A stretch of 64,000 bases of DNA from an uncultured Thiotrichaceae bacterium (lineage in GTDB: Bacteria > Pseudomonadota > Gammaproteobacteria > SZUA-229). The translations under genes and the position numbers were made by a program. Where the stretch lies: assembly GCA_964651445.1 (NCBI GenBank), contig CAZYYW010000001.1:173-64172 (forward strand). The letters run 5' to 3'. The notes under the pieces were generated by a model. The model was not told where the DNA came from. It searched no databases and saw only the letters and a program-made list of their open reading frames with translations. Below are positions 1-64,000 of the stretch, in pieces (within the stretch, counting starts at the first letter, position 1; the number at the start of each line of letters is the position of its first letter).

Positions 1-13
1 AACCGGGACTATT

Positions 14-460
14 TTGCCTGTATCCGGTGAGATAGCCCGTTATGATGTATCACGATACCTTGACCTCACCTTATGCAATGAACACAACGCTGGCTTCGAT
101 GCTATTGGCAAGCAACAGCGTCAGGGACAAAAGGTACTGATAAAAAGTAGGATAATTACAGATTCAATAAAATCAGGTCATCGACTTGGACAGATAAATC
201 CAAATGCTAGCTGGGATATTGTCATCCTTGCATTAATGGACAACACTTTTGAGCCTTACGAAATGTATCAGTTAAGCCGTGATCAAGTGATTGACTGTGC
301 TTCAGGAAACAATAAAAAGAACATCACCATTTCCGTGGCAAAATTTAAAGCCATTGGCGACTTGGTTTGGACAAGTAATCAAGATATCATTTATTCAGAT
401 AATAAAGATATAAGTAACGAATATTATAATGAACCGGTAGTCCATTCAGAATATGTTTAA
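14..460 (+). CDS. hypothetical protein; TTG start at 14, and the frame stays open to position 2 so the gene may extend off the left edge
   Basis: Long ORF ending at a convergent hairpin; no recognisable motifs; convergent with fliT. Confidence 0.3.
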   Translation: MPVSGEIARYDVSRYLDLTLCNEHNAGFDAIGKQQRQGQKVLIKSRIITDSIKSGHRLGQINPNASWDIVILALMDNTFEPYEMYQLSRDQVIDCASGNNKKNITISVAKFKAIGDLVWTSNQDIIYSDNKDISNEYYNEPVVHSEYV

Positions 461-476
461 GCCGCCCTAAGGCGGC
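461..476. terminator. GC-rich hairpin (GCCGCC-ctaa-GGCGGC) between two convergent genes; candidate bidirectional terminator
   Basis: Perfect 6-bp GC stem with a 4-nt loop, immediately after the stop at 460 and before the fliT stop at 507. Confidence 0.45.
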
Positions 477-506
477 TCTGATGAATATCTTAAGGAAGGG
501 TTTTAA

Positions 507-827
507 CTAAGCACTGTTCATGGCATACATATTAACCGCATGCCGACCCTTGCTGATGGTTGAAATTTCGCTGCGAGAATTTTCGCGTGCTTTTAGGGTA
601 ATCTTTTCTAGTTGTTTGTTTATATCGATGATTTTCTGTATTTTGTTGTCTATATCAACGACATTATGATGCTGTATCGAACCGGAGAATAATTGCTCAA
701 GCAATTCACTGCGTTTCACTTCTATATCGATGACTTTGTTCCAGTTACCCGCTGCAGCATCTTTTAGCATGCTCTCACTGCACACAATAGCACTCTGTAT
801 TTGTTTATCTTTATTATTCATAGCCAA
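507..827 (-). CDS. fliT: FliT-like flagellar export chaperone (small helical protein)
   Basis: 106-aa helical ORF directly downstream of fliS in the fliD-fliS-fliT position. Confidence 0.45.
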   Translation of the reverse strand: MAMNNKDKQIQSAIVCSESMLKDAAAGNWNKVIDIEVKRSELLEQLFSGSIQHHNVVDIDNKIQKIIDINKQLEKITLKARENSRSEISTISKGRHAVNMYAMNSA

Positions 828-864
828 TGCTCACGTGGTTGTTGTTATCTGGTTAGTAGAAAAA

Positions 865-1296
865 TTATGATGCAACTGAAATATCAACGTCTGTCTGTTT
901 TCTCATATCTTGGGGTATCGATTCCCAGCCAGACTTTATTTCATGCAACAAACCAGAAACCTCATTTAGTATTGAAACATCATTTTTCATGTTTGCTTTT
1001 AATAAACGACCTTCAATATACTCGTAAATATTATCCAGGTTTCTCGCCAGCTCACCGCCAGCTTCGATGTTTAAACTGGATTTCAATCCGCCGATAATGG
1101 CTATCGCTTGTCCGATAACTTCACCTTTTTTAGCCGTTTCCTCACGCGCCATTAATCCTTTAACTATCGCTATTTTACCTAGAGCACCTTCTAGTAACAT
1201 CATCACCAGTCGATGCGGATCGGCATCTGTTACGCCGCTAATTCTGTTTATCTGGTTATAATGTGAGATATTTGTGCCCATTGTTGCAATGCTCAT
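865..1296 (-). CDS. fliS: flagellar export chaperone FliS
   Basis: 143 aa; the LLEGAL...IIGGL helical-bundle pattern typical of FliS; flagellar context. Confidence 0.85.
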   Translation of the reverse strand: MSIATMGTNISHYNQINRISGVTDADPHRLVMMLLEGALGKIAIVKGLMAREETAKKGEVIGQAIAIIGGLKSSLNIEAGGELARNLDNIYEYIEGRLLKANMKNDVSILNEVSGLLHEIKSGWESIPQDMRKQTDVDISVAS

Positions 1297-1439
1297 TCTG
1301 CGCCCTCTATTTTTTAGTTATTTCACTGTCCAATAAAAACCAAACAATTAACCACATGTTTGCTTTGCCTTTTAAATATTCTCATAACGGGTGGCAACTT
1401 AACTAGTCGCTATCTACACATCTGCAATTTAAATGCCAA

Positions 1440-1838
1440 TTACATGTATTCACTAAATAGCTTTATATTGCCACCATCACCCAAGTTTCGAGCAAAGCTT
1501 AAAGCCTCTTCATTTGGGATTTGTCGAATCACTTCATCTGTGGCTAAGTCAATGACTTTAATAACAGTCTTACCGCTATCTTTGTCGACACTAAAATGAA
1601 TTTCACGTTGCACAAGCTGCATAGTTTCATTAATTTTTTTCACTGCTTCGTCAAGTTGCGCTGCATCCACAGCTTCTACCACTGCGGCACTTTGTTCTGG
1701 CTTTGCCGCCTGTGCTGGCAATTCATTACCGAATTGCGGATGATTACGCGCTGAAGCTGTACCATTAACCGGCAATATTCTTTCTGCGGCTCTCTGACTA
1801 ACGTCAATCATCTTGTTATCATCATTGGATATTCTCAT
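1440..1838 (-). CDS. flaG: FlaG family flagellar protein
   Basis: 132 aa; C-terminal KTVIKVIDLATDEVIRQIP FlaG signature; next to fliD and flagellin. Confidence 0.75.
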   Translation of the reverse strand: MRISNDDNKMIDVSQRAAERILPVNGTASARNHPQFGNELPAQAAKPEQSAAVVEAVDAAQLDEAVKKINETMQLVQREIHFSVDKDSGKTVIKVIDLATDEVIRQIPNEEALSFARNLGDGGNIKLFSEYM

Positions 1839-2040
1839 CAGGGTGTCACCTGCTAATTATTTTAAAACATTCGTCCTTACGCTTTATCGACTCAATACCT
1901 GCCTGAAATTTTTTTCAGGATAACGTCTTAGACTTTCATTACTACTAGTAACTATATCGACAGGCTTAAAATTTCCTTTAATCTTGCGCCTATTTGCTCA
2001 ATATTTATCGCCGAAAAAGCGAAATAATCACCGCCATACG

Positions 2041-3408
2041 CTACCTTCGGGAGATTTGAGGTAAATTGGCGAGTTGTTGCGTTAAGAAACTACCTGTCGA
2101 CTGCAACTGCGCCACTAATATATCCATCGCGATGAACTGCGCACTCAGACGCGCTTCTAATGAAGCCATGCGTCTATCTAATACTTCTCGCCTATCGTCT
2201 ATTCCATCTAACCGACTTTGCAGACCATCTCGGCGAGAATCAATAATACCGTCGTCAGCAACATACCCTGTTATCGCGGCAGAAAACCCTTGTGCTATAC
2301 CACCAGAGGAAGAAAAGAAATTCCTTACATCGGATAAATTACTGGCGAGTTTTTCATCAAACACGGTTGCGTCCAGCTTTAAGCTGCCACCATCCCCTAG
2401 TGTGATGCCCAGCTCAGATAAGTTAGAAAATACACCGCCACTGGCACCAGAAGACAGCGCCTGACGCAAGCTATTTTGTATCCCTCTAACCACAGAATCA
2501 CCGTTTAGCGGCCCTGCTATTAAAGTCGATTGATCAAAACCTGATAAACCTTTCATCACACCGATGAGCGTGTTGTAATTCAAGACAAAACTATCGACAT
2601 CTTTTTTAATGGCGTCATTGTCCAGTACCACCGAAAGTGTTTCTGATGAACCTGGTTGCGCACTGTTGAGATTAAAGGTCACACCTGAAATAACATCGGA
2701 AAAATTATTGCTGCCACGTGTCACTGTCTGCGAATCGACTTGTATTACCGCGTCAGATGCCGATATCAGCGTTGTTAAATTGGATGAATCCAGTTGCGTT
2801 AAATCAAACCCAGGCACCGTACCATCATCTGTGGCAAGTACATTAATGGTATTACTTGCGCCCACCTGATCTGAACTTAGAATTAACTGCGTCCCCGAAT
2901 CTACAGTGATTAAAGATGCTCTTACTCCAGGATTATCCGATGCTATATTGATAGCATCGCGTATGCCTTCTAATGTATTGTTGCTACTATCGATGGTGAG
3001 CTGAAAGGTTTCTGCGCCAAGTGATATATCAAGTGTACCGGCACCCATAACCTCGCTACTATCAGTAAAATCCGCCGAACGCAGTTTTTCTGCCTGTGCT
3101 AGTTGTATTACTTCAATGTTATAACTACCTGCAACTGCGGTGTCATCTGTTGTGGCGCTAAACACCTCGTCATTACTGGAACTGGCTTTATAAACCTGGA
3201 ATGCTAATGGATCTTCCAGACGACTTATACTGGTTTGAAAAGCAGACAGTGCGCCTTTAAGTGTGCCGAAGGCCGATAGCTCCGAACCCAAACTGGTTTC
3301 TCGTGTGTTTAATCGTGCATTCACCGGTTCTGCCTCGGCAGCAACTAACTGTGAGACAATGCTATTTATGTCCAGACCTGAACCGATTCCACTTGCAATA
3401 ATTGGCAT
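2041..3408 (-). CDS. fliD: flagellar filament cap protein FliD (HAP2)
   Basis: 455 aa; N-terminal IASGIGSGLDINSIVSQLVAAE...RLNTRETSL is the classic FliD N-terminus; C-terminal heptads. Confidence 0.9.
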   Translation of the reverse strand: MPIIASGIGSGLDINSIVSQLVAAEAEPVNARLNTRETSLGSELSAFGTLKGALSAFQTSISRLEDPLAFQVYKASSSNDEVFSATTDDTAVAGSYNIEVIQLAQAEKLRSADFTDSSEVMGAGTLDISLGAETFQLTIDSSNNTLEGIRDAINIASDNPGVRASLITVDSGTQLILSSDQVGASNTINVLATDDGTVPGFDLTQLDSSNLTTLISASDAVIQVDSQTVTRGSNNFSDVISGVTFNLNSAQPGSSETLSVVLDNDAIKKDVDSFVLNYNTLIGVMKGLSGFDQSTLIAGPLNGDSVVRGIQNSLRQALSSGASGGVFSNLSELGITLGDGGSLKLDATVFDEKLASNLSDVRNFFSSSGGIAQGFSAAITGYVADDGIIDSRRDGLQSRLDGIDDRREVLDRRMASLEARLSAQFIAMDILVAQLQSTGSFLTQQLANLPQISRR

Positions 3409-3540
3409 TTCAAAATCCTCTAAACTTTATGACTGCATTTAAAATTATTTCGTATCACATAATTAGTATGACGCTTAAACAATAAAAACTCTGGCAGTGT
3501 ATCCCTGCCAAAGCTTATTAAAATACTACCGGTAACCGTG

Positions 3541-3566
3541 GTCAGGCAAAAAACCTTGCCTGACCA
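3541..3566 (-). terminator. perfect 10-bp stem-loop (GGTCAGGCAA / TTGCCTGACC) 12 bp downstream of the flagellin stop
   Basis: Inverted repeat read directly; location typical of the strong flagellin terminator/attenuator; no clear U-tract. Confidence 0.5.
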
Positions 3567-3578
3567 TTCATTAACCAA

Positions 3579-4775
3579 CTACCGAAGCAGGCTCAATACG
3601 TTTTGTGGTATTGAATTTGCTTGCGACAACATGGCAACACCGGCCTGTTGCAGAATCTGATTACGTGTCAAACTTGCTGTTTCTGCAGCAAAGTCAGCAT
3701 CACGAATACGACCACGTGCTGCGCTGGTGTTTTCTGAGTTAATGGCCAGATTATTTACCACACTTTCAAAACGTGTTTGAATTGCACCCAGATCAGCACG
3801 TGCAGTGTTAACCGCTGTTAGCGCTGCATCCATCTGTCCAATTGTTGCTACTGCACCTGTCGCTGTTGATATATCCATGCTGGCAAAGCCATTGGTTACC
3901 GAGGTTGCAGTTGTAGCTGCCGCTAGACCTGTGTTAACGGTTGCAGCGTCTTGATCACCACCGGCGCTGGCAACAAATGCAACAACAATAGCATCTGCCT
4001 TTGCAGCATCACCTGCGTAACTAAGAGTCACTAAATCACTATTCGTCCCGCCCACTGATGCAATAACACCGGTTGTGCCAGAAATTGCATTAATGGCTGA
4101 ACTTACACCGACCGCACGCTCTGCTGCACTAGTAGCCACACCGATAGCGCCGACATTTGTGCCGTTAATGGTAAGTGTGTCTGCTTCAATAGCACCCCAG
4201 TTAACATCAGCAGTGCCTGCTGCAACAGTAGCGCCTGTAGCTGAGGTAGCATTATGATTTTCGCCCAAACTAGAAGATTGTGCATTGACAATGCCGCTAA
4301 TAGCAATCGTTTCACCACGATTAGCACCTACCTGAAAGCTCTGATCAACAAAACTACCATCAAGCAACTTAACACCATTGAAATTTGTTTGTGTCGCCAC
4401 ACGATCAACTTCACTTTTAAGCTGTTGCGCTTCTGCATTCAGTGCTGCACGGTCAGATGCACTGTTTGTTGCATTGGCAGACTGTACCGCTAGTTCACGA
4501 ATACGTTGCAAGGCGCTACTGACACTATCAAGCGAGCCTTCCGCCGTTTGTGCTAAAGAAACACCATCATTGGCGTTACGCATGGCGATATTCATGCCAC
4601 GTATTTGTGTGGTCATTCTTTCTGAAATAGCCAGACCTGCCGCATCGTCTTTTGCACTGTTAATGCGCAAACCAGAGGATAAACGTTGTAGTGATGTCGC
4701 AAGATCCATTGATGATGAAGATAAATTACGCTGCGCGTTTAATGAGGCAACGTTAGTATTAATTGTTAAAGCCAT
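3579..4775 (-). CDS. fliC: flagellin
   Basis: 398 aa; conserved N-terminus (MALTINTNVASLNAQRNL...LSSGLRINSAKDDAAG) and C-terminus (QNVLSLLR); Ala/Thr/Ser/Gly-rich variable centre. Confidence 0.95.
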   Translation of the reverse strand: MALTINTNVASLNAQRNLSSSSMDLATSLQRLSSGLRINSAKDDAAGLAISERMTTQIRGMNIAMRNANDGVSLAQTAEGSLDSVSSALQRIRELAVQSANATNSASDRAALNAEAQQLKSEVDRVATQTNFNGVKLLDGSFVDQSFQVGANRGETIAISGIVNAQSSSLGENHNATSATGATVAAGTADVNWGAIEADTLTINGTNVGAIGVATSAAERAVGVSSAINAISGTTGVIASVGGTNSDLVTLSYAGDAAKADAIVVAFVASAGGDQDAATVNTGLAAATTATSVTNGFASMDISTATGAVATIGQMDAALTAVNTARADLGAIQTRFESVVNNLAINSENTSAARGRIRDADFAAETASLTRNQILQQAGVAMLSQANSIPQNVLSLLR

Positions 4776-4838
4776 GTCTGTTCTCCTAGAGCGAGCAGAT
4801 ATACGACCAACGTGGTGTATTTACTGCTTCTGCTATCC

Positions 4839-4865
4839 TTAACGACAGGACTTTAAAAAACTTTA
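4839..4865 (-). promoter_or_regulatory. candidate sigma28 (FliA) promoter for flagellin; minus strand reads TAAAGTTT-N11-GTCGTTAA
   Basis: Minus-strand match to TAAAGTTT-N11-GCCGATAA (8/8 at -35, 6/8 at -10) about 65 nt upstream of the flagellin ATG. Confidence 0.4.
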
Positions 4866-4909
4866 ATGGCTGTTTACATGTTTTCAATATATTTCTCATA
4901 ATGACTGAT

Positions 4910-6433
4910 TTACATATGTTGACAGCCATAAGGCACTGTCATGATGCCGGAGGGCGATAACTCGTTTACAAAAACATGTAGGTGTTTTTTGTAATGTCTA
5001 CTATTTTCAGACGAAACTTTATACTGCCGAGATTCAGGCAGTGAATACCTCGCTATATTGACCTTATTTTTACTCGTGGCAAAAGCCTGCCCTGATACTT
5101 GCCATTGTATGTTGATAAATTCAAATAACTGCTTACTGACATTCGCCGGGCATGCAATTAACTCTTCATAATTCACCTTATGTATTTTTATCGGCAGAAC
5201 ATCTTCCCAATGCGCCATTAAACGTTGATATTGCTGAAAATATAACGCTATATGTTCCTGATTATATGAATAATCATTTTCTGTCGTAAAGTTTCGAAAA
5301 TAACTGGAGAGACAAACATCAAACGGATTTCTAACACAGTGAATAATTTGCGCCTGTGGATATAACAGTGCAATCAAACCCAGATACAGATAATTTTCTG
5401 GCATTGTATTTATTATTTTTTCTGGTTTCTTGCTTTCGCTGCTAGCAGCAATGTTATTGACCTCATTAAGATAAAACCTTGAATAGTTATTGATAATTTC
5501 AATGTTAAAATCGTTTTTATAAAGCCTGTTAAACCGTTCTGAAATCAGCCTGATTTGATTGCCTTCGCCGATGCTATAGACATCCGCCTTTCTGTTGAGC
5601 ATGTTTTCCACCAGGCTGATGCCTGAACATGGCATACCCACAACAAATACTGGTTGCACGCTATTATTTAACGCATTCCTATCAAACTTATTAAATATGG
5701 CAGGCGTATAGGTGGCAATCCGTTGCGTCATCACGCTTACGTGTTTATCACCGTCAAACATTAAACCCTTGCTCATATTCGCCACCAGATAGTTGGCAAA
5801 GGCTTTATCATAACGACCACTGGCATCGTATATATTGCCTAATGAAAAATAAAAGCTACTACGATCTTCCAGTGACAATTCTGTGTTTTCAAGTAATTTT
5901 TCAATATTAATAACATCCTGATCGCTTAGAATACTGGCATCAATTTCAGCCACGCCTTGCAGATTCTTAGGGTCATCAGGATTTAATTCAAAGGCGTATT
6001 TGTAGTGATGCAGGGCAAGGTCAAGATTACCTTGCCTCAAGTTCAAACGTGCTAATTCTGCATGTGCCTCTGCATTATTTTCGTCTATATTCAACATACA
6101 TATATAATGCAATATGGCATCATTAAAGCGTGAAGCACGGGTATGAACCTGAGCAAGATTTTTATTTGTCTCGATGTTATCTGGGTTTAACTCCCATGCC
6201 ATGTTTAAAAACTCAACAGCCAGTTTTAACATGCCGGCTTGCATTGCAATCAAACCCAAACCATTTAGTACCAAAATATTTTTAGGTTCTAACTGTAACG
6301 CTTTCTGGTAAAGGTAATTTGCCTGCTTCAACTTATTTTCTTCAAAATAGTCATTCGCTTCGAAGATCAGCCTTGCCACATGATTATCATGACGTTTTGT
6401 CTTCTGTTGAATTTTTATTTCTATGCTTTTCAT
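4910..6433 (-). CDS. TPR-repeat protein with a C-terminal sulfotransferase-family domain; putative flagellin-glycan modifying enzyme
   Basis: N-terminal TPR repeats; C-terminal VVGMPCSGISLVENML resembles the 5'-PSB motif and HCVRNPFDV the 3'-PB motif of sulfotransferases; sits between flagellin and flgL. Confidence 0.6.
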   Translation of the reverse strand: MKSIEIKIQQKTKRHDNHVARLIFEANDYFEENKLKQANYLYQKALQLEPKNILVLNGLGLIAMQAGMLKLAVEFLNMAWELNPDNIETNKNLAQVHTRASRFNDAILHYICMLNIDENNAEAHAELARLNLRQGNLDLALHHYKYAFELNPDDPKNLQGVAEIDASILSDQDVINIEKLLENTELSLEDRSSFYFSLGNIYDASGRYDKAFANYLVANMSKGLMFDGDKHVSVMTQRIATYTPAIFNKFDRNALNNSVQPVFVVGMPCSGISLVENMLNRKADVYSIGEGNQIRLISERFNRLYKNDFNIEIINNYSRFYLNEVNNIAASSESKKPEKIINTMPENYLYLGLIALLYPQAQIIHCVRNPFDVCLSSYFRNFTTENDYSYNQEHIALYFQQYQRLMAHWEDVLPIKIHKVNYEELIACPANVSKQLFEFINIQWQVSGQAFATSKNKVNIARYSLPESRQYKVSSENSRHYKKHLHVFVNELSPSGIMTVPYGCQHM

Positions 6434-6461
6434 TTTTATATCCCATTTACACGTGCCATAG

Positions 6462-7364
6462 CTACAGATAGTTAAATAATGACAAACCCTGAATTTTTAC
6501 AAAACTTTGTTGCGATGCTTGTAACGACAGTAACTGCTGCTCAAACCTGCTGACGGCTTCTGCATAGTCCAAGTCTTGTAGACCTGAACGATTTTCCTGC
6601 AGTACCAGCGTAAAACTGCTATTCACATTTCTTTGCCCATCAATGGTATTTAAACGGCCACCAATACTTGCGCGAGCATCGTTCACTACGTTGAGCGCGG
6701 AATCTAGGCGACTAAGTGTCACGCCTGATGGTGTATTTGCCTCTAGATCTGTGACAAAATCTTGTATCACTGAAAACATACTGGCATTGCCTCCTGCACC
6801 GTCATCAATTTTCATGAATATGTCGTCACCAGAGTCTCCAACCGATACCTGACTTCTGCTGCCAATTTGTACATTTCGCTGACCCTGGTCACCGTTGTAA
6901 CTAAAATTACCGGAACCGTCATCGGTAAACGGTACGGTATCGGTTTTAAAACCGGCGAATAAATATTCACCACTGGCATCGGTACTGTTTGCTAATTGCA
7001 TCAGAGCATCAATACTGAGCTGCACTTCTGCCACCATCGACAAACGATCACTCGCACTCAAGCTGCCATTATTTGCGTGTACCGAAATTTCACGGATACG
7101 TTGTAAAACATCATTTACTTCGGTTAACACCGCCTCTCCCATAACCAGACGTGTTTCTGCAAAATCGGCATTTCGTTGAAACTGGTTAGTGCTTTCAATC
7201 ACTTTATTTAGATCAAGAATTCGAGTGGCTGCGGTGGGGTCATCACTGGGCGTTAAAACACGCTTGCCGGTGGCAATCTGCTGCTGCGTTTTAGCCAGTT
7301 CAGCCTGAGTATTTAACATGGCATTCACTGCTTGTTGAAATATTTGTGCTGTCGAGATACGCAT
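6462..7364 (-). CDS. flgL: flagellar hook-associated protein 3 FlgL
   Basis: 300 aa; MRISTAQIFQQ... N-terminus and flagellin-like termini; follows flgK. Confidence 0.9.
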   Translation of the reverse strand: MRISTAQIFQQAVNAMLNTQAELAKTQQQIATGKRVLTPSDDPTAATRILDLNKVIESTNQFQRNADFAETRLVMGEAVLTEVNDVLQRIREISVHANNGSLSASDRLSMVAEVQLSIDALMQLANSTDASGEYLFAGFKTDTVPFTDDGSGNFSYNGDQGQRNVQIGSRSQVSVGDSGDDIFMKIDDGAGGNASMFSVIQDFVTDLEANTPSGVTLSRLDSALNVVNDARASIGGRLNTIDGQRNVNSSFTLVLQENRSGLQDLDYAEAVSRFEQQLLSLQASQQSFVKIQGLSLFNYL

Positions 7365-7366
7365 TT

Positions 7367-9337: not shown

Positions 9338-9342
9338 ATGCC

Positions 9343-9783: not shown

Positions 9784-9784
9784 T

Positions 9785-11607: not shown

Positions 11608-11622
11608 GGTGTCATCTCTCAC

Positions 11623-12408: not shown

Positions 12409-12448
12409 AATATTTCTCCACTCGATAAAACAGTAAATAATACTGCTA

Positions 12449-13192: not shown

Positions 13193-13250
13193 AATTATGT
13201 CCTGTTAATCATGCTCTATTAACGATGCGCTTTAACTATTTTTCTATAGT

Positions 13251-41586: not shown

Positions 41587-41588
41587 AG

Positions 41589-54352: not shown

Positions 54353-54363
54353 AACACAAACCT

Positions 54364-55146: not shown

Positions 55147-55445
55147 CTTGCTTATTGCACAATTTCGAATTTAAAATACACGCATGTTTTGCTTGCGCTG
55201 TCACATCCGGTTTCTTCTACTCTATTTAATCGGTCGCCACCGCAGAAGCTTTAGTAGAAATTTGATATGAATCCGCTTGAAACAAAGGATTTTAGTAATC
55301 GGTATCTCTACGGATGACAAGTCATTTGTAAACTTTTGTAAACATACAATAAACAAAGACTTATTTACTATACAGTCGATAAAATATTTGATATAAAGAA
55401 GCCGCTATATCTGCATTACAGCAAGTTAATTGCGCCATTTTTGAT

Positions 55446-57059: not shown

Positions 57060-57290
57060 GAACTGGAAGCGACCATTGGCCTCATCGTTACACATCAACA
57101 GGGGTTTACACATCGAGAGGGCTTTAATTATCATGCCGTATTTTTAATCTATTGAGTTTCATCACCCAATATATCGACGCGACACTATTTATCTTTAACC
57201 GCAGCACGACCATTCGTCGGAATGATAAATGGTCGTGCTGCGTTAATTAATTAACGCCAAGAGTATTTCTATTAGAGCTGCCTACAGCAA

Positions 57291-58130
57291 TTAGACAAGA
57301 AGGGATTGTCGCGCTTTTTCATACAATTGTTGATTTTCTTTAATTTGCAAAAGATTAACATCTGAATCCATGCCTAATCTAGAAAATGCGGGGACTAGGC
57401 ACCAATCATCAGGCGAATGCTCCTCAGCAACATAACCACCTTGTAATAATGCGACCTGTACTAAGTTAACCAGATTTGTGCCATCTTTCTGTTCATAGTC
57501 AAAGTTATGGCTTTCCTCGACCACTTCAATTAAATCATTGGAAAAGTTCCAACTGCGTAACATCAAAGCACCTATGCGACCTTGCAATGCATGGACAACG
57601 GATTTTAATTCTTTGGCGTCATTAAATAGCGCTTTATCATTGCCGGCAATAGCCAGCAAAGGCAAGGCACCAATGTTATGGATAAGACCAGCCAACAAGG
57701 CTTGTTCTCTGCGGATGCCACACATTGATGCCGTCATCATTTGGCAAATGGCTGCCACATTGACCGAAACACTCCATGTTTTCCTGAACTGTTTATCCAT
57801 AACCGGGGATGTTGGCTTAAAGATTTGTTTCATCGCAAGATTGGTAATTAAGTCCCTTACCATTTTCCCGCCGAGCCGAGTAACGGCTCTTTGCAAATCC
57901 TCAATAGGCACTTCACCGCGGTATAATGGGCTATTAACCACCTTCAGTAACCTTACCGATAAAGCTGCATCTTGGCTCAGGATATCAGCAATCTGTTCAG
58001 TTGTTGTCTCTTCGTGATCAACAGCTTCTCTTATTTTCAACGCGACTTCTGGCAGTGACGGTAGTATTATCCGATCTTCATTAATGGCTAGCTCTAGCTT
58101 ATTATAAAAGTCTTCATGTTCGACGCTCAT
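57291..58130 (-). CDS. HDOD-domain protein (paralog 1)
   Basis: LPSLPEVALKIREAV...LLKVVNSPLY; HNIGALPLL. Confidence 0.8.
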   Translation of the reverse strand: MSVEHEDFYNKLELAINEDRIILPSLPEVALKIREAVDHEETTTEQIADILSQDAALSVRLLKVVNSPLYRGEVPIEDLQRAVTRLGGKMVRDLITNLAMKQIFKPTSPVMDKQFRKTWSVSVNVAAICQMMTASMCGIRREQALLAGLIHNIGALPLLAIAGNDKALFNDAKELKSVVHALQGRIGALMLRSWNFSNDLIEVVEESHNFDYEQKDGTNLVNLVQVALLQGGYVAEEHSPDDWCLVPAFSRLGMDSDVNLLQIKENQQLYEKARQSLLV

Positions 58131-58258
58131 TTTAACTACTTATCCATCACATATTTTATGTTAAATAATACTGCTATTGATTGTATCGGCAGGTAAAAGC
58201 TATTATTTATTATAGCTTTATTATTTCAGGGTGAAGAAATTGGACGTTTCTTCTTTTA

Positions 58259-59101
58259 TCAAATCATCAACGATTGCCTGGCATCATTGAGCAGTTCCTC
58301 ATTTTCTTCTATATGAATAACATCTACTTCTGCATTCATGCCCAATTTTTCAAATGCTGGAATTGTAGACCAATCCTCCGGACACAGATCATTGGAGATA
58401 AAGCCACCCTGTAGCAAGGTAAACTGAACCAGATCAACCATATTCGCGCTGCCTTCATGCTCATATTTAAAGTTATGGCATTGGCTTACAACTTCAATCA
58501 ACTCGTCTGAAAAGTGCCAGTTTTCTAATATAATAGCGCCAACACGACCTTGTAATTCCTGAATAAGCTGATCCATCGCTTGCTGATCATGAAACAAATA
58601 ATCATCTTCCTCAGCCATCAATAGTATGGGTAATAAACCAATGTTATGCAGTAAACCTGCCAGTAAGGCCTGTTCTTTTTTAACGCCGACTTCCATCGTT
58701 GCCGCCATCATTTGACAGATGGCCGCTATGTCGACAGACGTTTTCCATGCCGATCTGAACTGTTTTTCCATCATCACGGATGTCGGTTGATACATTTGTT
58801 TCATGGAAAGATTGGTTACCAAGTCGCGCACCAAACTGCTGCCCATACGGGTAACAGCCATGTGTAAATCCTCAATCGGCATTCGGGTTCTATACAGAGG
58901 GCTGTTCACTATCTTCAATAAACGTGCAGACAGTGCACCATCCTGACTAAGAATGTCAGCAATTTGCCCACTTGTGGTGTCTTCTCTTTCAGCGACATCG
59001 CGTATTTTTAACGCCACATCAGGTAAAGAGGGTAATTCAATTCTATCTTCTTCGACGGCTTCTTGTAGCTTACTAAAAAACTGCTCAACGTCTGTACTCA
59101 T
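58259..59101 (-). CDS. HDOD-domain protein (paralog 2; likely start MSTDVEQFF at 59101, 9 nt after an AGGA RBS)
   Basis: LPSLPDVALKIRDVA...LLKIVNSPLY; HNIGLLPIL; collinear with paralog 1. Confidence 0.8.
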   Translation of the reverse strand: MSTDVEQFFSKLQEAVEEDRIELPSLPDVALKIRDVAEREDTTSGQIADILSQDGALSARLLKIVNSPLYRTRMPIEDLHMAVTRMGSSLVRDLVTNLSMKQMYQPTSVMMEKQFRSAWKTSVDIAAICQMMAATMEVGVKKEQALLAGLLHNIGLLPILLMAEEDDYLFHDQQAMDQLIQELQGRVGAIILENWHFSDELIEVVSQCHNFKYEHEGSANMVDLVQFTLLQGGFISNDLCPEDWSTIPAFEKLGMNAEVDVIHIEENEELLNDARQSLMI

Positions 59102-59217
59102 AACGGTTCTATCCTGTTTTGTTTTCTCATAAACTTGCCAAGCTATTGAAAGATACAAGTCGTTAATTAATCGACAGCATTTATATTTTCTTTAACAATA
59201 TTATTTTCTCGGTTTAA

Positions 59218-59973
59218 TCACGCAGTGATCTCTTGTTCAGTCCACTCGGTCATTCGTGCGCGAAGACGTAATAGAGCCTGGCCGTGTATCTGACAAACCC
59301 TCCCTTCGGTAATCCCCAGAATCTCACCTATTTCACGCAAGTTGAACTCCTCGTCGTAATACAGTGCCATTACCATTTTCTCTCGTTCAGGCAAATGCTC
59401 TATTTTATTAACCAGTCCTTGTTTAAAATCTGCTTCCTGTAATTCCTTTAGAGGGTTATTAAAGTCACAGCTTTTATATTCATCCGCACAGCCTCCAGCA
59501 GAGGCTATATCTTCGTAGCTTAATAATTGGCAGCCGGCGGCATCCTTTACCATACGATAATATTCTTCGATGCCAAGTTGCATATGTTCGGCAATTTCAC
59601 TGTCTGTAGCATGGCGGCCATGTTCACTTTCAATTTGTCGAATGGCTTCTGATAGCTCTCTTGATTTTTTATAAACAGAGCGTGGCGTCCAATCGCAACG
59701 CCGTACTTCATCAATCATTGAACCTTGAATTCGAATCCGAGCATAGGTTTCAAAACTTGCACCTTTACTCATATCATAGCCTTTTAAGGCTTCAAATAAC
59801 CCAATCATGCCAGTTTGCACGATGTCTTCCAATTGTATGCTAGAAGGTAATCGCGTAATCATATGGTAGGCAATACGTTTAACAAATGGTGCATATTCCG
59901 TCATCAATTCATCATAATTCGGTGCATCACCTGAGATAGAACCAACTTCAGCGTAACTGGACATCGATGCCAT
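59218..59973 (-). CDS. fliA: flagellar sigma factor FliA (sigma28)
   Basis: Sigma70 regions 2-4; stop overlaps the flhG start. Confidence 0.9.
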   Translation of the reverse strand: MASMSSYAEVGSISGDAPNYDELMTEYAPFVKRIAYHMITRLPSSIQLEDIVQTGMIGLFEALKGYDMSKGASFETYARIRIQGSMIDEVRRCDWTPRSVYKKSRELSEAIRQIESEHGRHATDSEIAEHMQLGIEEYYRMVKDAAGCQLLSYEDIASAGGCADEYKSCDFNNPLKELQEADFKQGLVNKIEHLPEREKMVMALYYDEEFNLREIGEILGITEGRVCQIHGQALLRLRARMTEWTEQEITA

Positions 59974-60884
59974 TAGCTGACCTCCTGAGACACCATTGAA
60001 AATTGAGATTTGTCAGCTTGAATCATACGTTCCATAAAAAATTTCATTTGTCCATCAGATCGTGTGCGTTCAGGCCAGCTATCAATTTGCCGAGTAATTC
60101 GTTTAAACGCCAATGCTGAGGGCGAGTGAGGAAAGGCATCAACCACCGCTCTTTGGTGTTGAATGGCTTTACGCAACTTTCCATCAAACGGTACTGCGCC
60201 AACAAATTCCAACACCACATCTAAAAAACGGTCGGTCGCTTTTGACAACTTATTGAATAGTTCACGGCCTTCACGCGCATCATGTGTCATGTTCGCCAAA
60301 ATATGAAATTTACCAACGTTCAGTTTTCGACTCATGACTTTTATGAAAGCGTAAGCATCTGTAATAGAAGCAGGTTCATCATGCACCACAACAATGATTT
60401 CCTGCGATGCGCCACAAATATTGATAACAGTGTCAGCAATGCCAGCACCGGTATCGATAATCATGACGTCAACGGCAAAACTTAAATCACTAAAAGCATT
60501 AATTAACCCCATCTGTTGTGCAGGGTCTAAATTAGCCATATCACTTATTCCGGTTGATGCTGGAATAACTTTTATATTTGATGGTCCGTTAACAATGATT
60601 TCTTCCAGAGTACGTTCGCCACGCATTACGTGAGACAAGTCGTATTCTGTATTTAAACCGAGCAAAACATCAACGTTCGCTAATCCCATATCAGCATCCA
60701 TTAACAAAACTTCTTTGCCTTGTTTCGCCATCGACAGCGCAAGATTAACCGATACATTGGTTTTACCTACACCCCCTTTACCGCTACTTATAGCGATTAT
60801 TTTTACCGGGCGAGGTGCAACAACACGGCGTAAACTTTCTGCCTGATCCAGATTGCGTCGCATTGACACTTTAGATGTTTCCAT
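59973..60884 (-). CDS. flhG: MinD-like ATPase FlhG/FleN (flagellar number regulator)
   Basis: Deviant Walker A SGKGGVGKTN; between flhF and fliA. Confidence 0.9.
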   Translation of the reverse strand: METSKVSMRRNLDQAESLRRVVAPRPVKIIAISSGKGGVGKTNVSVNLALSMAKQGKEVLLMDADMGLANVDVLLGLNTEYDLSHVMRGERTLEEIIVNGPSNIKVIPASTGISDMANLDPAQQMGLINAFSDLSFAVDVMIIDTGAGIADTVINICGASQEIIVVVHDEPASITDAYAFIKVMSRKLNVGKFHILANMTHDAREGRELFNKLSKATDRFLDVVLEFVGAVPFDGKLRKAIQHQRAVVDAFPHSPSALAFKRITRQIDSWPERTRSDGQMKFFMERMIQADKSQFSMVSQEVS

Positions 60885-62154
60885 TATTATTTACCCCACC
60901 AAAGCTATAGGCCAACTCTTCGTCTGACACTGAATTTTTTAAACATCGCATTAACTTTACAGCCTCTTTTACCAGCAACTTACCGCGTGCACGATGCAAA
61001 TCATCCGGTACTTTCTGACCGTCACAAACAAAGGCTACCGGAAGATCATGCTGAATAAGAACTGAAATTATTTCACCGAGGCTGGCTGTTTCATCTATTT
61101 TTGTAATGACACAACCCTCAAGGTTTTCTTTGCCAAAGCTGTTAACCACATCATCCAGTAAATTCATTTGCCCTGTTGCTGATAATACCAGGTAATTTTT
61201 TATATCCATATCTGGGTAATGTTTAGTGGTTATCAAATCATTTAAGTTAAGACCTTTCTGACTGAGTCCAGCGGTATCTATCAGTGTTAGGTTATGCTCT
61301 CCAGATTTTTTTTGAACTTCGTTTAACAAGTTTTCAAGTTCTTCTGCATCGCTTGCAACGTGAACAGGTATACCCAGAATACGACCATAACTACGCAGTT
61401 GTTCATGCGCACCAATACGGTAGTTATCAGTGGTGATTAATGTCACACCGCGACGACCGTGTTTTAATGCAAACCGGGCAGCAAGTTTAGCGATGGTTGT
61501 CGTTTTACCAACACCTGTCGGACCTATCAGGGAAACTATGCCACCATTGGATATAATATCCTGATCACTAATCGGCACCAAATAAGAAAGATAGTTTAAA
61601 GATTCCAACCAACTATTTTTACTCAAACCCTTTTTTTCAAGCTTACTGGCAATGCCTCGGCTTAACCCGGGACTAATACCCAACGTTATCAACTGTTTTA
61701 ATAAGTTGGCATACAAGGGTTGCACACGGCTTGTTTCGCTCCAGGAAAATTGCATCAGCGGTGCTTCCATGATGTTTCTTAAACTGGCCAATTCATCTTG
61801 AATTTTATCCAGCGTTGTTGTACTAGAATTTGTTGACGACTCGAAGTTTGTATTCTCTACTAGACTATCGAATGAAGATTTTTGATTTGTTGATGTGTCC
61901 ACTTTCATATTGTCAGGGCTGGCAACCGCGTTACTCTGCTGTACACTATTTCGATACGGATCTATTTCGCTAAGGGTATCGGGATTGCCAAGAGATGTCT
62001 GTACCATTGCATCTTCATAATCCATCGCAGCAATAATTTCTACACCACCATTAACTTGCCGGTTAGATAAAATTACCGCATCTGAGCCCTGCTCCTCGCG
62101 CAGTGCACGCATTGCCTGACGTGAATCCGGTGCAAAATAACGTTTCATTTTCAT
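60871..62154 (-). CDS. flhF: SRP-type GTPase FlhF (flagellar placement); likely start MKMKRYF at 62154
   Basis: G-domain GPTGVGKTTT, DTAG, TKID. Confidence 0.85.
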   Translation of the reverse strand: MKMKRYFAPDSRQAMRALREEQGSDAVILSNRQVNGGVEIIAAMDYEDAMVQTSLGNPDTLSEIDPYRNSVQQSNAVASPDNMKVDTSTNQKSSFDSLVENTNFESSTNSSTTTLDKIQDELASLRNIMEAPLMQFSWSETSRVQPLYANLLKQLITLGISPGLSRGIASKLEKKGLSKNSWLESLNYLSYLVPISDQDIISNGGIVSLIGPTGVGKTTTIAKLAARFALKHGRRGVTLITTDNYRIGAHEQLRSYGRILGIPVHVASDAEELENLLNEVQKKSGEHNLTLIDTAGLSQKGLNLNDLITTKHYPDMDIKNYLVLSATGQMNLLDDVVNSFGKENLEGCVITKIDETASLGEIISVLIQHDLPVAFVCDGQKVPDDLHRARGKLLVKEAVKLMRCLKNSVSDEELAYSFGGVNNNGNI

Positions 62155-62270
62155 ACCGCGCTCCATTGAACAATTGCAGTTATGTAGCCCACTGCCCAAA
62201 AGGCACACACCAAAAACAGCAAACTATTTTTTTTGATATTGTTATACATGTCATTCATTATTATCTCCTG

Positions 62271-64000
62271 TTACGCAGCTTTTACTTTTTGACCACCGAC
62301 TGCTGCGACAACTTTAATGTTTTTACTGTCAGGAACCTCGTTATAAGCTAATACATGCAGATTTGGTGCCAAGCTTCTTAATAACCTTGCCAATGATGTC
62401 CGAATCACTGGAGAAACTAATAAAACGGCTGCGTTATTTTCAACTTCTTGCTGTTTGATACAGAGATTCAGCTCCTGAATCATCTGTTCTGCTAACCCTG
62501 GCTCCAGCCCTAAACCCGCATTTGACGCGCTTTGTACGGACTGCTGCAATATTTGTTCCAATTCGGGGCTTAAAGTGATGACGGCCATTTCTTCCGCCAT
62601 ACCATTTATATTTTGATAAATCTGACGTGACATCGCGGTGCGTACTGCGGTGGTTAAAACGTCAGAGTTTTGGCTTTCGCTCGCATGTTCCGCCAAAGTT
62701 TCGGCGATGGTACGCATATCACGAATCGGCACACCTTCAGCAAGCAAGTTCTGTAGCACCTTCACGACTATGCCCAGCGGTAACACTTTAGGTACCAAAT
62801 CTTCCACCAGTTTAGGCGACTGTTTCGCCAACATTTCCAACAGATGCTGTACTTCTTCATGACCAATCAACTCATGTGCATGCTGGCCTAATAGGTGGCT
62901 TAAATGCGTTGCCACCACTGTGCTGCTATCCACCACGGTATAACCCAACGTTTGCGCTTCATCACGCATGTTCGGCTCTATCCAGACCGCTTCCAGGCCA
63001 AAGGTGGGGTCTTTGGTTTTTATGCCTTTAACATTGCCAAAAACCTGACCAGGATTAATCGCCAGTTCTTTTTCTGGATAAGCCTCACCCTCACCAACCG
63101 GCACACCCATTAATATAATGCGATATGCATTGGGTGAAAGATCAAGGTTGTCCCTTATGTGCACCGCTTGTATAAGAAAACCAAGGTCCTGCGAAAGCTT
63201 TCGACGTACACCTTTAATGCGTGACATCATTTGCCCGCCCTGATTTTTATCAACCATTGGAATCAAGCGATAGCCAACCTCTAGGCCAACAACATCCACT
63301 ATAGGCACATCATCCCAGCTTAAATCTTTAAGCTGTGGCTCGATCTCCTCGCCTTCCAGATCGACAACCTCTTGCTGCTCACTGAGCTGTTGCTGTTGAT
63401 ATAAATAGTATGCAACCGCACCAAAAACGGCACTAAGTGATAAAAATACTAAATTAGGCATGCCTGGAATCAGGCCGAGACTACCAACGATGCCAGCAGT
63501 AATTGCGATTGGTCGAGGTTTGTTCAACAACTGACCGATTACTTGCTCACCCACATCTTGCGAAGATGAGTCACGGGTCACTGCAATGGCTGCTGCCGTA
63601 GACAAGATTAAAGAAGGAATCTGTGCCACCAGACCATCACCAATGGTCAACAGTGTGTAGTTATGCGCGGCTTCTGAAAAGGCCATATCATGCTGTATGA
63701 CTCCGATACCCAAGCCAAAAATAATATTAATAAATAAAATCAATATTGCCGCAATCGCGTCGCCCCGAATAAACTTACTGGCACCGTCCATAGCGCCATA
63801 AAAATCCGCTTCACCGGTAATTTCTTGCCGCCTTGCCTTTGCCTCATCCTGTGTAATAAGACCGGAATTTAAATCTGCATCGACTGCCATTTGTTTTCCT
63901 GGCATCGCATCTAATGTAAAACGCGCATTGACTTCTGAAATACGCCCAGCACCCTTGGTCACCACCACAAAGTTGATAATGGTTAGCACCGCAAAGACCA
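62271..64000 (-). CDS. flhA: flagellar export apparatus protein FlhA (C-terminal part; N-terminus lies beyond the window edge)
   Basis: TM region plus FlhA cytoplasmic domain; ORF runs off the right edge. Confidence 0.9.
   Translation of the reverse strand, partial: VFAVLTIINFVVVTKGAGRISEVNARFTLDAMPGKQMAVDADLNSGLITQDEAKARRQEITGEADFYGAMDGASKFIRGDAIAAILILFINIIFGLGIGVIQHDMAFSEAAHNYTLLTIGDGLVAQIPSLILSTAAAIAVTRDSSSQDVGEQVIGQLLNKPRPIAITAGIVGSLGLIPGMPNLVFLSLSAVFGAVAYYLYQQQQLSEQQEVVDLEGEEIEPQLKDLSWDDVPIVDVVGLEVGYRLIPMVDKNQGGQMMSRIKGVRRKLSQDLGFLIQAVHIRDNLDLSPNAYRIILMGVPVGEGEAYPEKELAINPGQVFGNVKGIKTKDPTFGLEAVWIEPNMRDEAQTLGYTVVDSSTVVATHLSHLLGQHAHELIGHEEVQHLLEMLAKQSPKLVEDLVPKVLPLGIVVKVLQNLLAEGVPIRDMRTIAETLAEHASESQNSDVLTTAVRTAMSRQIYQNINGMAEEMAVITLSPELEQILQQSVQSASNAGLGLEPGLAEQMIQELNLCIKQQEVENNAAVLLVSPVIRTSLARLLRSLAPNLHVLAYNEVPDSKNIKVVAAVGGQKVKAA

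Follow-up and report, generated by a model that had tools for sequence, protein, structure and literature searches.

Networks of cyclic di-GMP (c-di-GMP) signalling are usually scattered over the genome, which makes it hard to assign an enzyme to an output. The stretch of DNA analysed here (the window) comprises 64,000 of the 80,573 bp of a contig from an uncultured Thiotrichaceae bacterium, leaving 16,573 bp outside, and carries numerous c-di-GMP and two-component signalling genes together with flagellar genes. This raises the question whether the signalling genes belong to the flagellum or have come together by coincidence, and what kind of replicon carries them. We consider a self-contained motility unit, with a private c-di-GMP and phosphorelay network inside the flagellar regulon, to be the best explanation overall, with a probability of roughly 0.7. 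A dedicated regulatory island for a flagellar system had been proposed in an earlier note on this DNA. The proposal is supported by flagellar-type promoter motifs ahead of the signalling genes and by conserved flagellar neighbours, as these genes keep flgA, fliA and motAB beside them in relatives, at 48-90% protein identity.

Signalling genes in the window

Pfam scans of all 55 open reading frames (ORFs) of at least 100 aa gave a nearly gap-free gene map and the domain counts used below (Table 1). The earlier note had counted four GGDEF, two EAL and three HDOD proteins, and all of them were found, both EAL domains within the GGDEF proteins of 1283 and 636 aa. In total, the window encodes 9 REC, 2 Hpt and 4 HisKA domains. 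Five histidine kinases (HKs), three of them hybrid, had also been listed. The hybrid kinases are present (BIG1283, HybHK738 and a REC-PAS-kinase-REC protein), but only one further protein, HK467, combines HisKA with HATPase_c, so that the total falls to four; the presumed fifth is a REC-HATPase_c_2 protein, an RsbW-type serine kinase. Two free response regulators had been expected, whereas a single stand-alone regulator with a DNA-binding output, of the OmpR type, was found; the remaining REC domains occur as fusions with a PP2C, RsbW-like, GGDEF-EAL or kinase module. The partner-switch module was confirmed, and consists of a STAS, a REC-PP2C and a REC-RsbW-like protein.

The signalling genes are not evenly interleaved with structural flagellar genes, as had been thought, but form two blocks (19.3-26.9 and 39.9-59.2 kb), flanked by the flg/fliDST genes at 0.5-18.1 kb on one side and by fliA-flhGFA at 59.2-64 kb on the other. 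Nor is the locus purely flagellar. What had been described as a single locus encloses a region, from 26.9 to 39.6 kb, with replication, partition and cargo genes that had gone unmentioned. Housekeeping genes are absent from the window, a tRNA scan found no tRNA gene, and an Rfam scan found no family, riboswitches included. The Pfam scans of the same ORFs found no che gene, PilZ protein or rpoN in the window; the unit would therefore depend on genes elsewhere for sigma-54 and any chemotaxis.

For a host genome assumed to be 4 Mb in size and signalling-rich, with 60 GGDEF/EAL and 10 HDOD proteins, about 1 and 0.16 of these are expected per 64 kb. Under this assumption the window exceeds expectation about 4-fold for GGDEF/EAL and about 19-fold for HDOD, with Poisson probabilities of about 0.02 (at least 4 GGDEF/EAL) and about 6e-4 (at least 3 HDOD). 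Stronger evidence against chance clustering is provided by the adjacency conserved in relatives and by the putative flagellar promoters ahead of the genes.

Conservation in relatives

The relatives (loci numbered L) are metagenomic contigs from hydrothermal-vent and sediment sources, labelled as Gammaproteobacteria, Thiotrichaceae or Thiotrichales bacterium. L003 and L017 are two loci of one molecule, ENA scaffold_79 (86,579 bp). A scan of a genome collection gave an HDOD protein at 24% identity as its sole match. Contigs with a 100% identical fliS occur in SRR9822617 and SRR9822619. Whether relatives lack the signalling genes was the check that the earlier note had proposed for telling an island from a coincidental insertion. 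The relatives carry them: at least seven independent lineages from metagenomes share the signalling genes and their flagellar neighbours with the window, at identities as low as 48%.

The core of block A, flgA-SPOR-(GGDEF)-(HK)-[HK-REC-Hpt-REC-GGDEF-EAL]-HDOD, is kept in L010/L011, L012/L013, L014, L017 and L027. In L010/L011 (HDOD272 55% identical) the order is cheV-flgNMA-SPOR-HK-[HK-REC-GGDEF-EAL]-HDOD, directly followed by RsbW-like, PP2C and STAS genes, cheD, REC-GGDEF-EAL, cheB and cheR, with no rep/par genes. L012/L013 (48%), on a 1.47-Mb contig, read flgE..A-SPOR-GGDEF-[REC-Hpt-REC-GGDEF-EAL]-HDOD, and the same core is seen in L014 (77%) and L027 (51%). Adhesin and type I secretion system genes adjoin block A in L012 and L013, and an OEP gene follows HDOD in L027. 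Orthologues of the diguanylate cyclase GGDEF310 occupy the same position in L012, L017 and L027, and those of HK467 are found in L010, L014 and L017 (56-71% identity). BIG1283, the 1283-aa protein of block A, has orthologues in L010, L012, L014 and L017 (62-79%), and the HDOD272 orthologue always adjoins the BIG orthologue (L010, L012, L014, L017 and L027). On scaffold_79 a FIST sensor gene heads the BIG/HDOD operon, behind a perfect sigma-28 motif (L017 17896-19056).

Block B is kept in L003-L006 and L009. L006, where the sigma-54 activator is 90% identical, has PP2C, STAS, REC-GGDEF-EAL, the hybrid kinase, REC-PAS-kinase-REC and the activator in the order of the window. L009 (activator 78%) contains REC-GGDEF-EAL-cheB-cheR, both kinases, the activator, PilZ, motBA, OmpR, the lipoprotein gene and HDOD, followed by genes for a methyl-accepting chemotaxis protein (MCP) and cheW. 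In L003-L005 (activator 79%) PP2C, RsbW-like, GGDEF, recombinase and a different kinase precede the activator, motBA, OmpR, lipoprotein, HDOD and fliA-flhGFA. The partner switch and REC-GGDEF-EAL are also retained in L003, L006 and L010, and L010 encodes a free REC-Hpt protein. The identity of the REC-GGDEF-EAL orthologue is 89% in L006 and 77% in both L009 and L010; in the latter two it forms part of a cheR-cheB(-cheD) operon. HybHK738 has orthologues in L006 and L009, the REC-PAS-kinase-REC gene lies directly upstream of the activator in L006, L007 and L009, and the OmpR-type regulator is conserved beside motA in L003 and L009 (68-76%).

Compared with scaffold_79 (L003 and L017), the segment 39880-51967, from GGDEF568 to REC-PAS-kinase-REC, is inverted and the recombinase lies on its other side. 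An invertible signalling cassette at 39.9-52.0 kb was considered and rejected, as no flanking inverted repeats were found.

Promoter motifs

Promoters were sought as consensus matches, with at most two mismatches to TAAAG-N14-GCCGATAA for sigma-28 and at most one to TGGCAC-N5-TTGCW for sigma-54. The sigma-28 consensus has 16 matches against 2.0 expected, a number reached by none of 100 shuffles, and the sigma-54 consensus has 10 against 3.6. Intergenic and correctly oriented sigma-28 motifs are located ahead of flagellin, flgM, flaG and motA, late genes where they are expected. Such motifs also precede BIG1283, REC-GGDEF-EAL, HybHK738, the lipoprotein gene, HDOD279 and HDOD299, and a weaker one precedes the OmpR gene. 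Sigma-54 motifs are found upstream of flgB, fliS and flhF; flgB and flhF serve as positive controls, as do the four late genes.

Several of these motifs are shared with relatives. The perfect sigma-54 motif TGGCACAGTTGTTGCT ahead of GGDEF310 recurs as an identical 16-mer ahead of SPOR-flgA in L010, and one-mismatch forms precede the GGDEF genes in L017 and L027. The sigma-28 motif of the BIG/HDOD operon is present in four other lineages (perfect in L012 and L017, with one mismatch in L014, and in L027), and both members of the sigma-28/sigma-54 pair ahead of REC-GGDEF-EAL are kept in L006. The enrichment of the motifs, their placement and their conservation speak for signalling genes that are part of the flagellar hierarchy. 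Together with the conserved neighbours, this supports the signalling genes as a conserved part of the flagellar gene programme and not a coincidental insertion.

Replication module and location of the locus

Between the signalling blocks lies a partition operon, encoding ParA and two ParB-like proteins, and the gene of a putative replication initiator, Rep370. ParA is 41-42% identical to plasmid ParA proteins and 91% identical to the copy in L017, where Rep370 is 85% identical. In the plasmid collection, Rep370 has homologues (29-38% identity) on plasmids from four genera only, Methylomonas, Tenderia, Thiodictyon and Bermanella. The one from Bermanella is annotated 'replication initiation protein', and on the Methylomonas plasmid the Rep homologue is divergent from ParA and a ParB_N gene, the same layout as in the window. 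The match of Rep370 to Pfam RPA is below threshold (20.3 vs 27 bits), no Rep relative was found in the viral collection, and a megablast search of 26-34 kb of the window against the plasmid collection gave no match.

Eight iterons, CGTACTAAnnnnGGTTT, directly follow Rep, all on the same strand; CGTACTAAWNNNGGTTT has 8 clustered matches against 0.93 expected in the whole window. A perfect DnaA box, TTATCCACA, is located 6 nt before the 22-bp array. The architecture of iterons, DnaA box and AT-rich stretch is also seen in L017, L020 and L022, with the DnaA box included in L017 and L020. Thus, an initiator gene, adjacent phased iterons, a DnaA box, an AT-rich region and a ParA/ParB system, the features of an iteron-type replicon, are all present; no centromere site was found.

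The module of ParB, ParB_N, ParA and Rep recurs at the same site on scaffold_79 (L017), again next to the HDOD/BIG operon. Comparison of 20 genes between the window and scaffold_79 showed saturated synonymous sites in all 20 (synonymous divergence, pS, 0.75-0.89). The lowest nonsynonymous divergence (pN) was that of ParA (0.058) and Rep (0.091), whereas HDOD272, HK467 and GGDEF568 reached 0.27-0.36. Purifying selection on the module is thus the strongest that was measured in the locus. A recent insertion of the rep/par block can be rejected, since synonymous sites of ParA and Rep are as saturated as those of their neighbours. A decaying remnant is likewise rejected, given saturated pS with low pN in ParA and Rep and an origin that is intact in the window and in L017. 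The module has thus shared the locus with the flagellar genes while under strong selection.

The size of the source contig can be accounted for by flagellar genes. Relative contig_24156 (L028) carries fliT, a convergent 172-aa ORF, fleR, fliE, F, G, H, I, J and a REC-GGDEF gene, and its 172-aa ORF is the counterpart of the ORF that is cut by the left end of the window. Continued through fliK-fliR and flhB, the order in L028 reaches flhA, the right end of the window. The missing genes need about 16.4-17.1 kb, and 16,573 bp of the source contig lie outside the window. Furthermore, the arcs outside the signalling and rep/par region are of similar length, 36.7 kb on scaffold_79 and 35.9 kb in the window. 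This indirectly supports a source contig that is a closed circle of about 80.6 kb with only flagellar, signalling and maintenance genes. That the whole unit is an autonomous low-copy plasmid or chromid of about 80.6 kb, carrying the flagellum together with its control network, seems to us somewhat more probable than the contrary. Odds slightly better than even are given to the most specific form of this reading: a closed iteron plasmid of that size with a complete polar flagellum and a private c-di-GMP/phosphorelay network in the sigma-54/FliA hierarchy, without che or rpoN, maintained vertically in a lineage of uncultured vent gammaproteobacteria with strong selection on Rep and ParA. If so, motility and second-messenger control would be a single replicon that is gained, lost or partitioned as a unit, with the chromosome supplying sigma-54 and any chemotaxis.

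Several observations speak against a plasmid. More distant relatives have the locus on the 1.47-Mb contig (L012) or without rep/par genes (L010, L027). No FliS homologue is among the matches listed for the 86,579-bp scaffold_79, the nearby tyrosine recombinase would also fit an integrated element, and GC skew, which follows gene strand, does not switch at the origin. A chromosomal flagellar and signalling locus is a possible, though doubtful, alternative. Here the 26.9-39.6 kb block would be an integrative element or a plasmid that, in an ancestor of this sublineage, entered the site between HDOD272 and the partner-switch operon and was retained; it might still excise by means of the tyrosine recombinase. 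The direct succession of HDOD and partner-switch genes in L010/L011, the OEP gene after HDOD in L027, the flagellar block on the large contig of L012, the recombinase and Fic genes at one edge of the block and the lack of a skew switch all agree with this, as does a Rep/Par backbone of 74-84% identity in the non-flagellar context of L020, beside a STAND NTPase and an M35 peptidase. The latter indicates a plasmid backbone whose cargo differs from place to place. Decay would however be expected of a silent integrated remnant, whereas Rep and ParA, despite saturated synonymous sites, show the strongest conservation of all proteins in the locus, and both genomes have kept the iterons, the DnaA box and the AT-rich stretch intact. 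The block has no tRNA gene and no flanking direct or inverted repeats at its edges, and the 80,573 bp of the source contig leave no room for non-flagellar DNA.

The recombinase and Fic protein likely serve plasmid maintenance (multimer resolution and a toxin-like function), or else integration. The recombinase is 75-77% identical to the L003 copy, on the same scaffold as L017, and HipA occupies the equivalent slot on scaffold_79, where it would fit an addiction function. Beside the origin, scaffold_79 carries REC-EAL, a HAMP-PAS kinase and HipA (L017 1369-7409); the slot beside the origin thus holds variable cargo that is itself signalling-rich.

Components and working of the network

The FleQ-like c-di-GMP sensor described in the earlier note is a FleQ-like sigma-54 activator that lacks the N-terminal FleQ domain. 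It contains EKGAFTGA, with the GAFTGA loop, its best PDB matches are FleQ chains, and it aligns to residues 139-486 of Pseudomonas aeruginosa FleQ (E=4e-124). All five FleQ residues that contact c-di-GMP, R144 (in L142FRS145), R185, N186, E330 and R334, are identical in the activator (compared with 8P53 and 5EXX). An upstream stop bounds the ORF, which begins 244 nt after the preceding gene, and all 120 homologues from uncultured Gammaproteobacteria among the matches listed, 311-402 aa long, likewise lack the N-terminal domain. The activator is the only recognisable c-di-GMP reader in the window.

All four GGDEF and both EAL domains keep their catalytic motifs and are predicted to be competent. 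The GGDEF/RxxD pairs read GGDEF/RYSD, GGEEF/RNTD, GGDEF/RESD and GGDEF/RESD, and the EAL domains have VEALIRW and AEALLRW together with DDFGTG, EGVE and KID. BIG1283 is a complete phosphorelay fused to c-di-GMP turnover domains, with GGDEF, RxxD, EAL, DDFGTG and EGVE intact and no transmembrane segment, and HDOD272 starts 3 nt after it. The GGDEF310 gene overlaps the SPOR gene by 1 nt, and the latter ends 18 nt before flgA.

The partner-switch genes and GGDEF568 form an operon in which genes overlap or are separated by at most 4 nt. STAS119 passes the cutoff of the anti-sigma-antagonist family TIGR00377 (56.5 vs 53.45 bits) and carries MDSSALG, with a putative DSS phospho-site motif; its link to GGDEF568 is the shared operon. 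The C-terminal 160 aa of the REC-PP2C (SpoIIE) protein contain no domain, and no kinase, recognisable to Pfam or NCBIfam, and the protein has no relative among solved structures. GGDEF568 keeps GGEEF and RxxD. SiaD is its best NCBIfam match (NF038266) and ranks fourth among its PDB matches (7E6G), but membership of the SiaD family is ruled out by the family cutoff (177.7 vs 290 bits). The GC content of this operon (39.9-44.5 kb) is 0.35-0.37, compared with 0.41-0.46 in the flagellar genes. With only 45-46% identity to its counterpart on scaffold_79, GGDEF568 is the fastest-evolving gene among those compared.

In all three HDOD proteins HN replaces HD in the HNIG motif, which fits non-catalytic HDOD domains. 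The slot after fliA, taken here by HDOD279 and HDOD299, holds cheY and cheZ in Pseudomonas and Vibrio. The two proteins are 57% identical tandem paralogues, with a single copy in L003 and L009, and the true start of HDOD299 probably lies 19 codons downstream of the annotated TTG. The P. aeruginosa HDOD protein SadB acts as an adaptor and was found not to bind c-di-GMP (PMC12075610).

A working model can be drawn from the FleQ, HptB/HsbR/HsbA/HsbD and SiaABCD paradigms of Pseudomonas (PMC5085249; 10.1101/2021.08.29.457346; PMC8457831). Early genes, including GGDEF310-SPOR-flgA, would be turned on by the FleQ-like activator together with chromosomal sigma-54, FlhG acting as antagonist of the activator, and c-di-GMP from GGDEF310 could feed back on the activator as it does on FleQ. 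Export of FlgM would then free FliA for flagellin, motAB and a late signalling set, comprising the BIG1283/HDOD272 operon, REC-GGDEF-EAL, the hybrid kinase, two HDOD proteins and the OmpR-type regulator, which may tune c-di-GMP and motor or gene output while the cell swims. Via Hpt, the membrane and soluble hybrid kinases could phosphorylate both the PP2C phosphatase and the RsbW-like kinase on their REC domains. These two proteins would set the phosphorylation state of STAS, which by switching partners would control GGDEF568 and possibly FlgM/FliA, as in HsbR/HsbA/HsbD and SiaABCD. The HDOD proteins would probably act as adaptors, one paired with BIG1283 and two in the slot after fliA.

Some points weaken the case for such a unit. 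The content varies among relatives: GGDEF310 and GGDEF568 are absent from L010, which has che genes, and L009/L010 carry cheB/R/D, cheW, cheV, MCP and PilZ genes within the same cluster, all lacking from the window, where the Pfam scans found no PilZ effector. The promoters are consensus matches only. FleQ-type regulation may not fully transfer to an activator without the N-terminal domain, and the partner switch is unlike HsbR, with phosphatase and kinase on two proteins and a cyclase below the SiaD cutoff. We know of no established biochemical link of HDOD to c-di-GMP.

A network that is co-expressed with flagella but has its main outputs elsewhere, in attachment, biofilm matrix or secretion, with flagellar promoters timing a motile-to-sessile switch, is unlikely in our view. 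It would be in line with the Pseudomonas HsbA-P/HsbD and SiaABCD systems, which act mainly on biofilm and RsmY (PMC5085249, PMC8457831), with the lack of a PilZ-type motor brake in the window, with an OmpR-type regulator as part of the set, and with the adhesin and secretion genes of L012 and L013. However, the only recognisable reader is a flagellar master-type activator and one cyclase is apparently co-transcribed with flgA; if the unit is a plasmid, it offers neither matrix nor adhesin genes through which such outputs could act. That the clustering is functionally meaningless, the signalling genes having gathered by chance or as hitch-hikers on mobile elements, is very improbable, as the porin, ZnuA and Fic genes without motility link in mid-locus, the low GC of the partner-switch operon and the variation of some signalling genes between relatives stand against the neighbours shared by at least seven lineages, the conserved motifs and the close junctions of GGDEF310 with SPOR-flgA and of HDOD272 with BIG1283.

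Flagellar genes, cargo and other features

Table 1. Features of the window with their coordinates (kb for regions, otherwise nucleotide positions)
Feature	Position	Strand	Detection and remarks
Flagellar structural/chaperone block	0.5-18.1 kb	-	
Signalling block A	18.2-26.9 kb		SPOR, GGDEF310, HK467; divergent BIG1283, HDOD272
Partition genes, Rep, AT-rich repeat region	26.9-31.9 kb		
Cargo, tyrosine recombinase, Fic	31.9-39.6 kb		
Signalling block B	39.9-59.2 kb		Partner switch through tandem HDOD; includes activator and motBA
fliA, flhG, flhF, flhA	59.2-64 kb		flhA cut at window end
ORF convergent with fliT	2-460	+	Weak DUF6998 match
fliT, fliS, flaG, fliD, flagellin, TPR-sulfotransferase, flgL, K, J, I, H, G, F, E, D, C, B, flgN, flgM, flgA	507-18139	-	Pfam
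TPR-sulfotransferase gene	4910-6433	-	
flgJ	9343-9816	-	157 aa
SPOR-domain protein	18158-19297	-	Pfam SPOR; apparent operon between GGDEF310 and flgA
GGDEF310, soluble diguanylate cyclase	19297-20229	-	Pfam GGDEF E=3e-35; GGDEF and RxxD motifs
Perfect sigma-54 motif TGGCACAGTTGTTGCT	20268-20283	-	39 nt upstream of GGDEF310(-SPOR-flgA)
HK467, membrane histidine kinase, HisKA, HATPase_c	20447-21850	-	Pfam, hydrophobic segments; ~6 transmembrane segments
Sigma-28-like TAAAG-N15-CCCGATAT	22048-22075	+	104 nt upstream of BIG1283
BIG1283, HisKA-HATPase-REC-Hpt-REC-GGDEF-EAL, 1283 aa	22179-26030	+	Pfam
HDOD272	26034-26852	+	Pfam HDOD E=9e-28
Partition operon: ParA (393 aa), ParB_N protein (319 aa), ParB HTH/C protein (269 aa)	26913-30072	-	Pfam
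Rep370, putative plasmid replication initiator	30267-31379	+	Plasmid-collection homologues
Iteron origin	31396-31907	+	3 iterons ~54 bp apart, DnaA box (31623-31631), 5 iterons at 22-bp spacing (31638-31742), 27% GC stretch
Accessory cargo: two hypothetical genes, porin-like gene, ZnuA, ABC-3 permease	31908-37210		Pfam
ZnuA and ABC-3 permease	35550-37210	+	
Tyrosine recombinase (345 aa), Fic/DUF4172 protein (366 aa)	37434-39598	-	Pfam
Four-gene operon of the partner switch and GGDEF568	39880-44518	-	Pfam
GGDEF568, coiled-coil	39880-41586	-	
REC-RsbW-like kinase, 302 aa	41589-42497	-	
REC-PP2C, 554 aa	42498-44162	-	
STAS119	44159-44518	-	
REC-GGDEF-EAL, 636 aa	44752-46662	-	Pfam; all catalytic motifs intact
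Sigma-28-like TAAAG-N14-GCCGATAG and sigma-54-like TGGCATGAAGTTTGCA	46886-46973	-	Upstream of REC-GGDEF-EAL
HybHK738, membrane hybrid kinase, HisKA, HATPase, REC, Hpt	47119-49335	-	Pfam, transmembrane segments (~5)
Sigma-28-like motif, HybHK738	49417-49443		
Soluble hybrid kinase REC-PAS-HisKA-HATPase-REC, 814 aa	49523-51967	+	Pfam
FleQ-like sigma-54 activator, 371 aa	52212-53327	+	Pfam Sigma54_activat E=2e-74, HTH_8 E=3e-12
motA and motB stator genes	53399-55146	-	Pfam
Sigma-28-like motif, motA	55227-55253		Also upstream of motA in L009
Weak sigma-28-like motif, OmpR gene	55354-55382		
Orphan OmpR-type response regulator	55446-56177	+	Pfam
Putative lipoprotein, 295 aa	56247-57134	-	Lipobox LLSGC
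Sigma-28-like motif, lipoprotein gene	57171-57197		Also in L003
Tandem HDOD279 and HDOD299	57291-59158	-	Pfam HDOD E=6e-43 and 2e-43; directly downstream of fliA
HDOD279	57291-58130	-	
HDOD299	58259-59158	-	
Sigma-28-like motifs, one per tandem HDOD gene	58183-58209, 59168-59194		
fliA, flhG, flhF, flhA	59218-63989	-	Pfam; N-terminus of flhA cut by window end
Sigma-54-like motif upstream of flhF, inside flhA	62356-62371		Conserved in L003

The flagellar gene set is of the polar type, with FlhF/FlhG, sigma-54 and FliA. FlgJ consists of the rod-binding domain only and lacks a muramidase domain. A TPR-sulfotransferase gene is located between flgL and the flagellin gene, the same arrangement as in L028 (4635-6008), and this placement suggests sulfation of flagellin or of a glycan. 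The SPOR protein, with its septal peptidoglycan-binding domain, is conserved beside flgA in L010, L012 and L027, and could link assembly of the P-ring, or of the flagellum, to the new cell pole. The ORF convergent with fliT, of 172-175 aa, has counterparts in L023 (1211-1738) and L028 (11060-11578), and in relatives it sits between fliT and fleR.

The 295-aa putative lipoprotein has no Pfam or NCBIfam match. With its own sigma-28-like motif and a conserved position between the OmpR gene and HDOD (L003, L009), it appears to be an unrecognised member of the flagellar regulon.

Among the cargo genes, only hyp296 and hyp163 have counterparts in relatives: hyp296 is 68-69% identical to a gene beside the sigma-54 activator in L003, and hyp163 has a match of 35% identity in L017. 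ZnuA and the ABC-3 permease lack an ATPase gene and are directly followed by the tyrosine recombinase; they are possibly a truncated metal-uptake operon carried as cargo.

Comparison with known systems

In Escherichia coli and Salmonella, c-di-GMP turnover is under FliA control through the class III genes pdeH (yhjH) and ycgR. That arrangement has one phosphodiesterase and one PilZ brake, whereas the window has at least two GGDEF-EAL proteins with putative FliA-type promoters, a cyclase with a sigma-54-type one and HDOD proteins, and no PilZ.

The closest parallels to the partner switch are found in Pseudomonas. As in hsbA-hsbR-hptB (PMC5085249; 10.1101/2021.08.29.457346), a STAS protein and a REC-PP2C/kinase regulator are encoded in a flagellar cluster, near flgA/flgM in P. 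aeruginosa. Hpt phosphotransfer from hybrid kinases, a diguanylate cyclase as second partner and a FleQ, FleN and FliA hierarchy are features of the Pseudomonas system that the window would share. HsbR is however a single REC-PP2C-kinase protein, whereas the window has two proteins, each with REC, and its Hpt domains appear within HybHK738 and BIG1283 and not as a free HptB. HsbD has six transmembrane segments and is separately encoded, whereas GGDEF568 is a soluble coiled-coil protein of the same operon, and the window has far more c-di-GMP enzymes and three HDOD proteins. SiaABCD of P. aeruginosa (PMC8457831, PMC7647112) is likewise a single operon, with genes for a phosphatase of the PP2C type, the kinase of the partner switch, a small switch protein and, under the control of the latter, a coiled-coil diguanylate cyclase. 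It differs in that the switch protein of the window is a classical STAS of TIGR00377 and not of the SiaC family, that the phosphatase and kinase carry REC, and that GGDEF568 scores well below the SiaD cutoff. The activator shares with FleQ of P. aeruginosa and FlrA of Vibrio (PDB 5EXX, 8P53) the AAA+ sigma-54 domain, GAFTGA loop, C-terminal HTH and c-di-GMP contacts, as well as being encoded with flhG (fleN) in a flagellar cluster, but entirely lacks the N-terminal FleQ (REC-like) domain of about 135 residues. With about a dozen signalling proteins tied to one machine, physically and by promoter motifs, the locus is a compact natural test case for signalling specificity.

A complete flagellar gene set also shares a molecule with Rep and ParAB on plasmid 3 of Aquicella lusitana (NZ_LR699116.1, a 92-kb record), where flagellar genes flank the rep/par module; this plasmid differs in carrying rpoN and much unrelated cargo and in having no GGDEF/EAL/HDOD set annotated. 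In Rhodobacterales, replication genes on the flagellar contig were used to call a plasmid location for fla2-type clusters (PMC11974857). Compared with these plasmids, the window has a Rep of a different family, an uncultured vent gammaproteobacterium as host, and cargo that is almost all flagellar or signalling. The iteron theta replicons pSC101, F, P1 and RK2 have a Rep gene, direct iterons phased at 22 bp, a DnaA box, an AT-rich stretch and a ParA/ParB operon; the window differs from them in its two ParB-like genes and in a Rep with only a weak RPA match. The replicon apparently belongs to an undescribed Rep family. If it is a plasmid, the range of flagellar systems known from plasmids would grow by a replicon family and a host group, and a whole regulatory network could travel with the machine it controls.

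Each element of the locus thus has a known counterpart, and three aspects differ: the number and diversity of the signalling proteins, their variant architectures, and the apparent packaging on one replicon. As predicted from their domains, the variant architectures are a FleQ homologue without N-terminal domain, an HsbR-like switch that is split and has two REC domains, and a phosphorelay in one polypeptide that ends in GGDEF-EAL and has an obligate HDOD partner.

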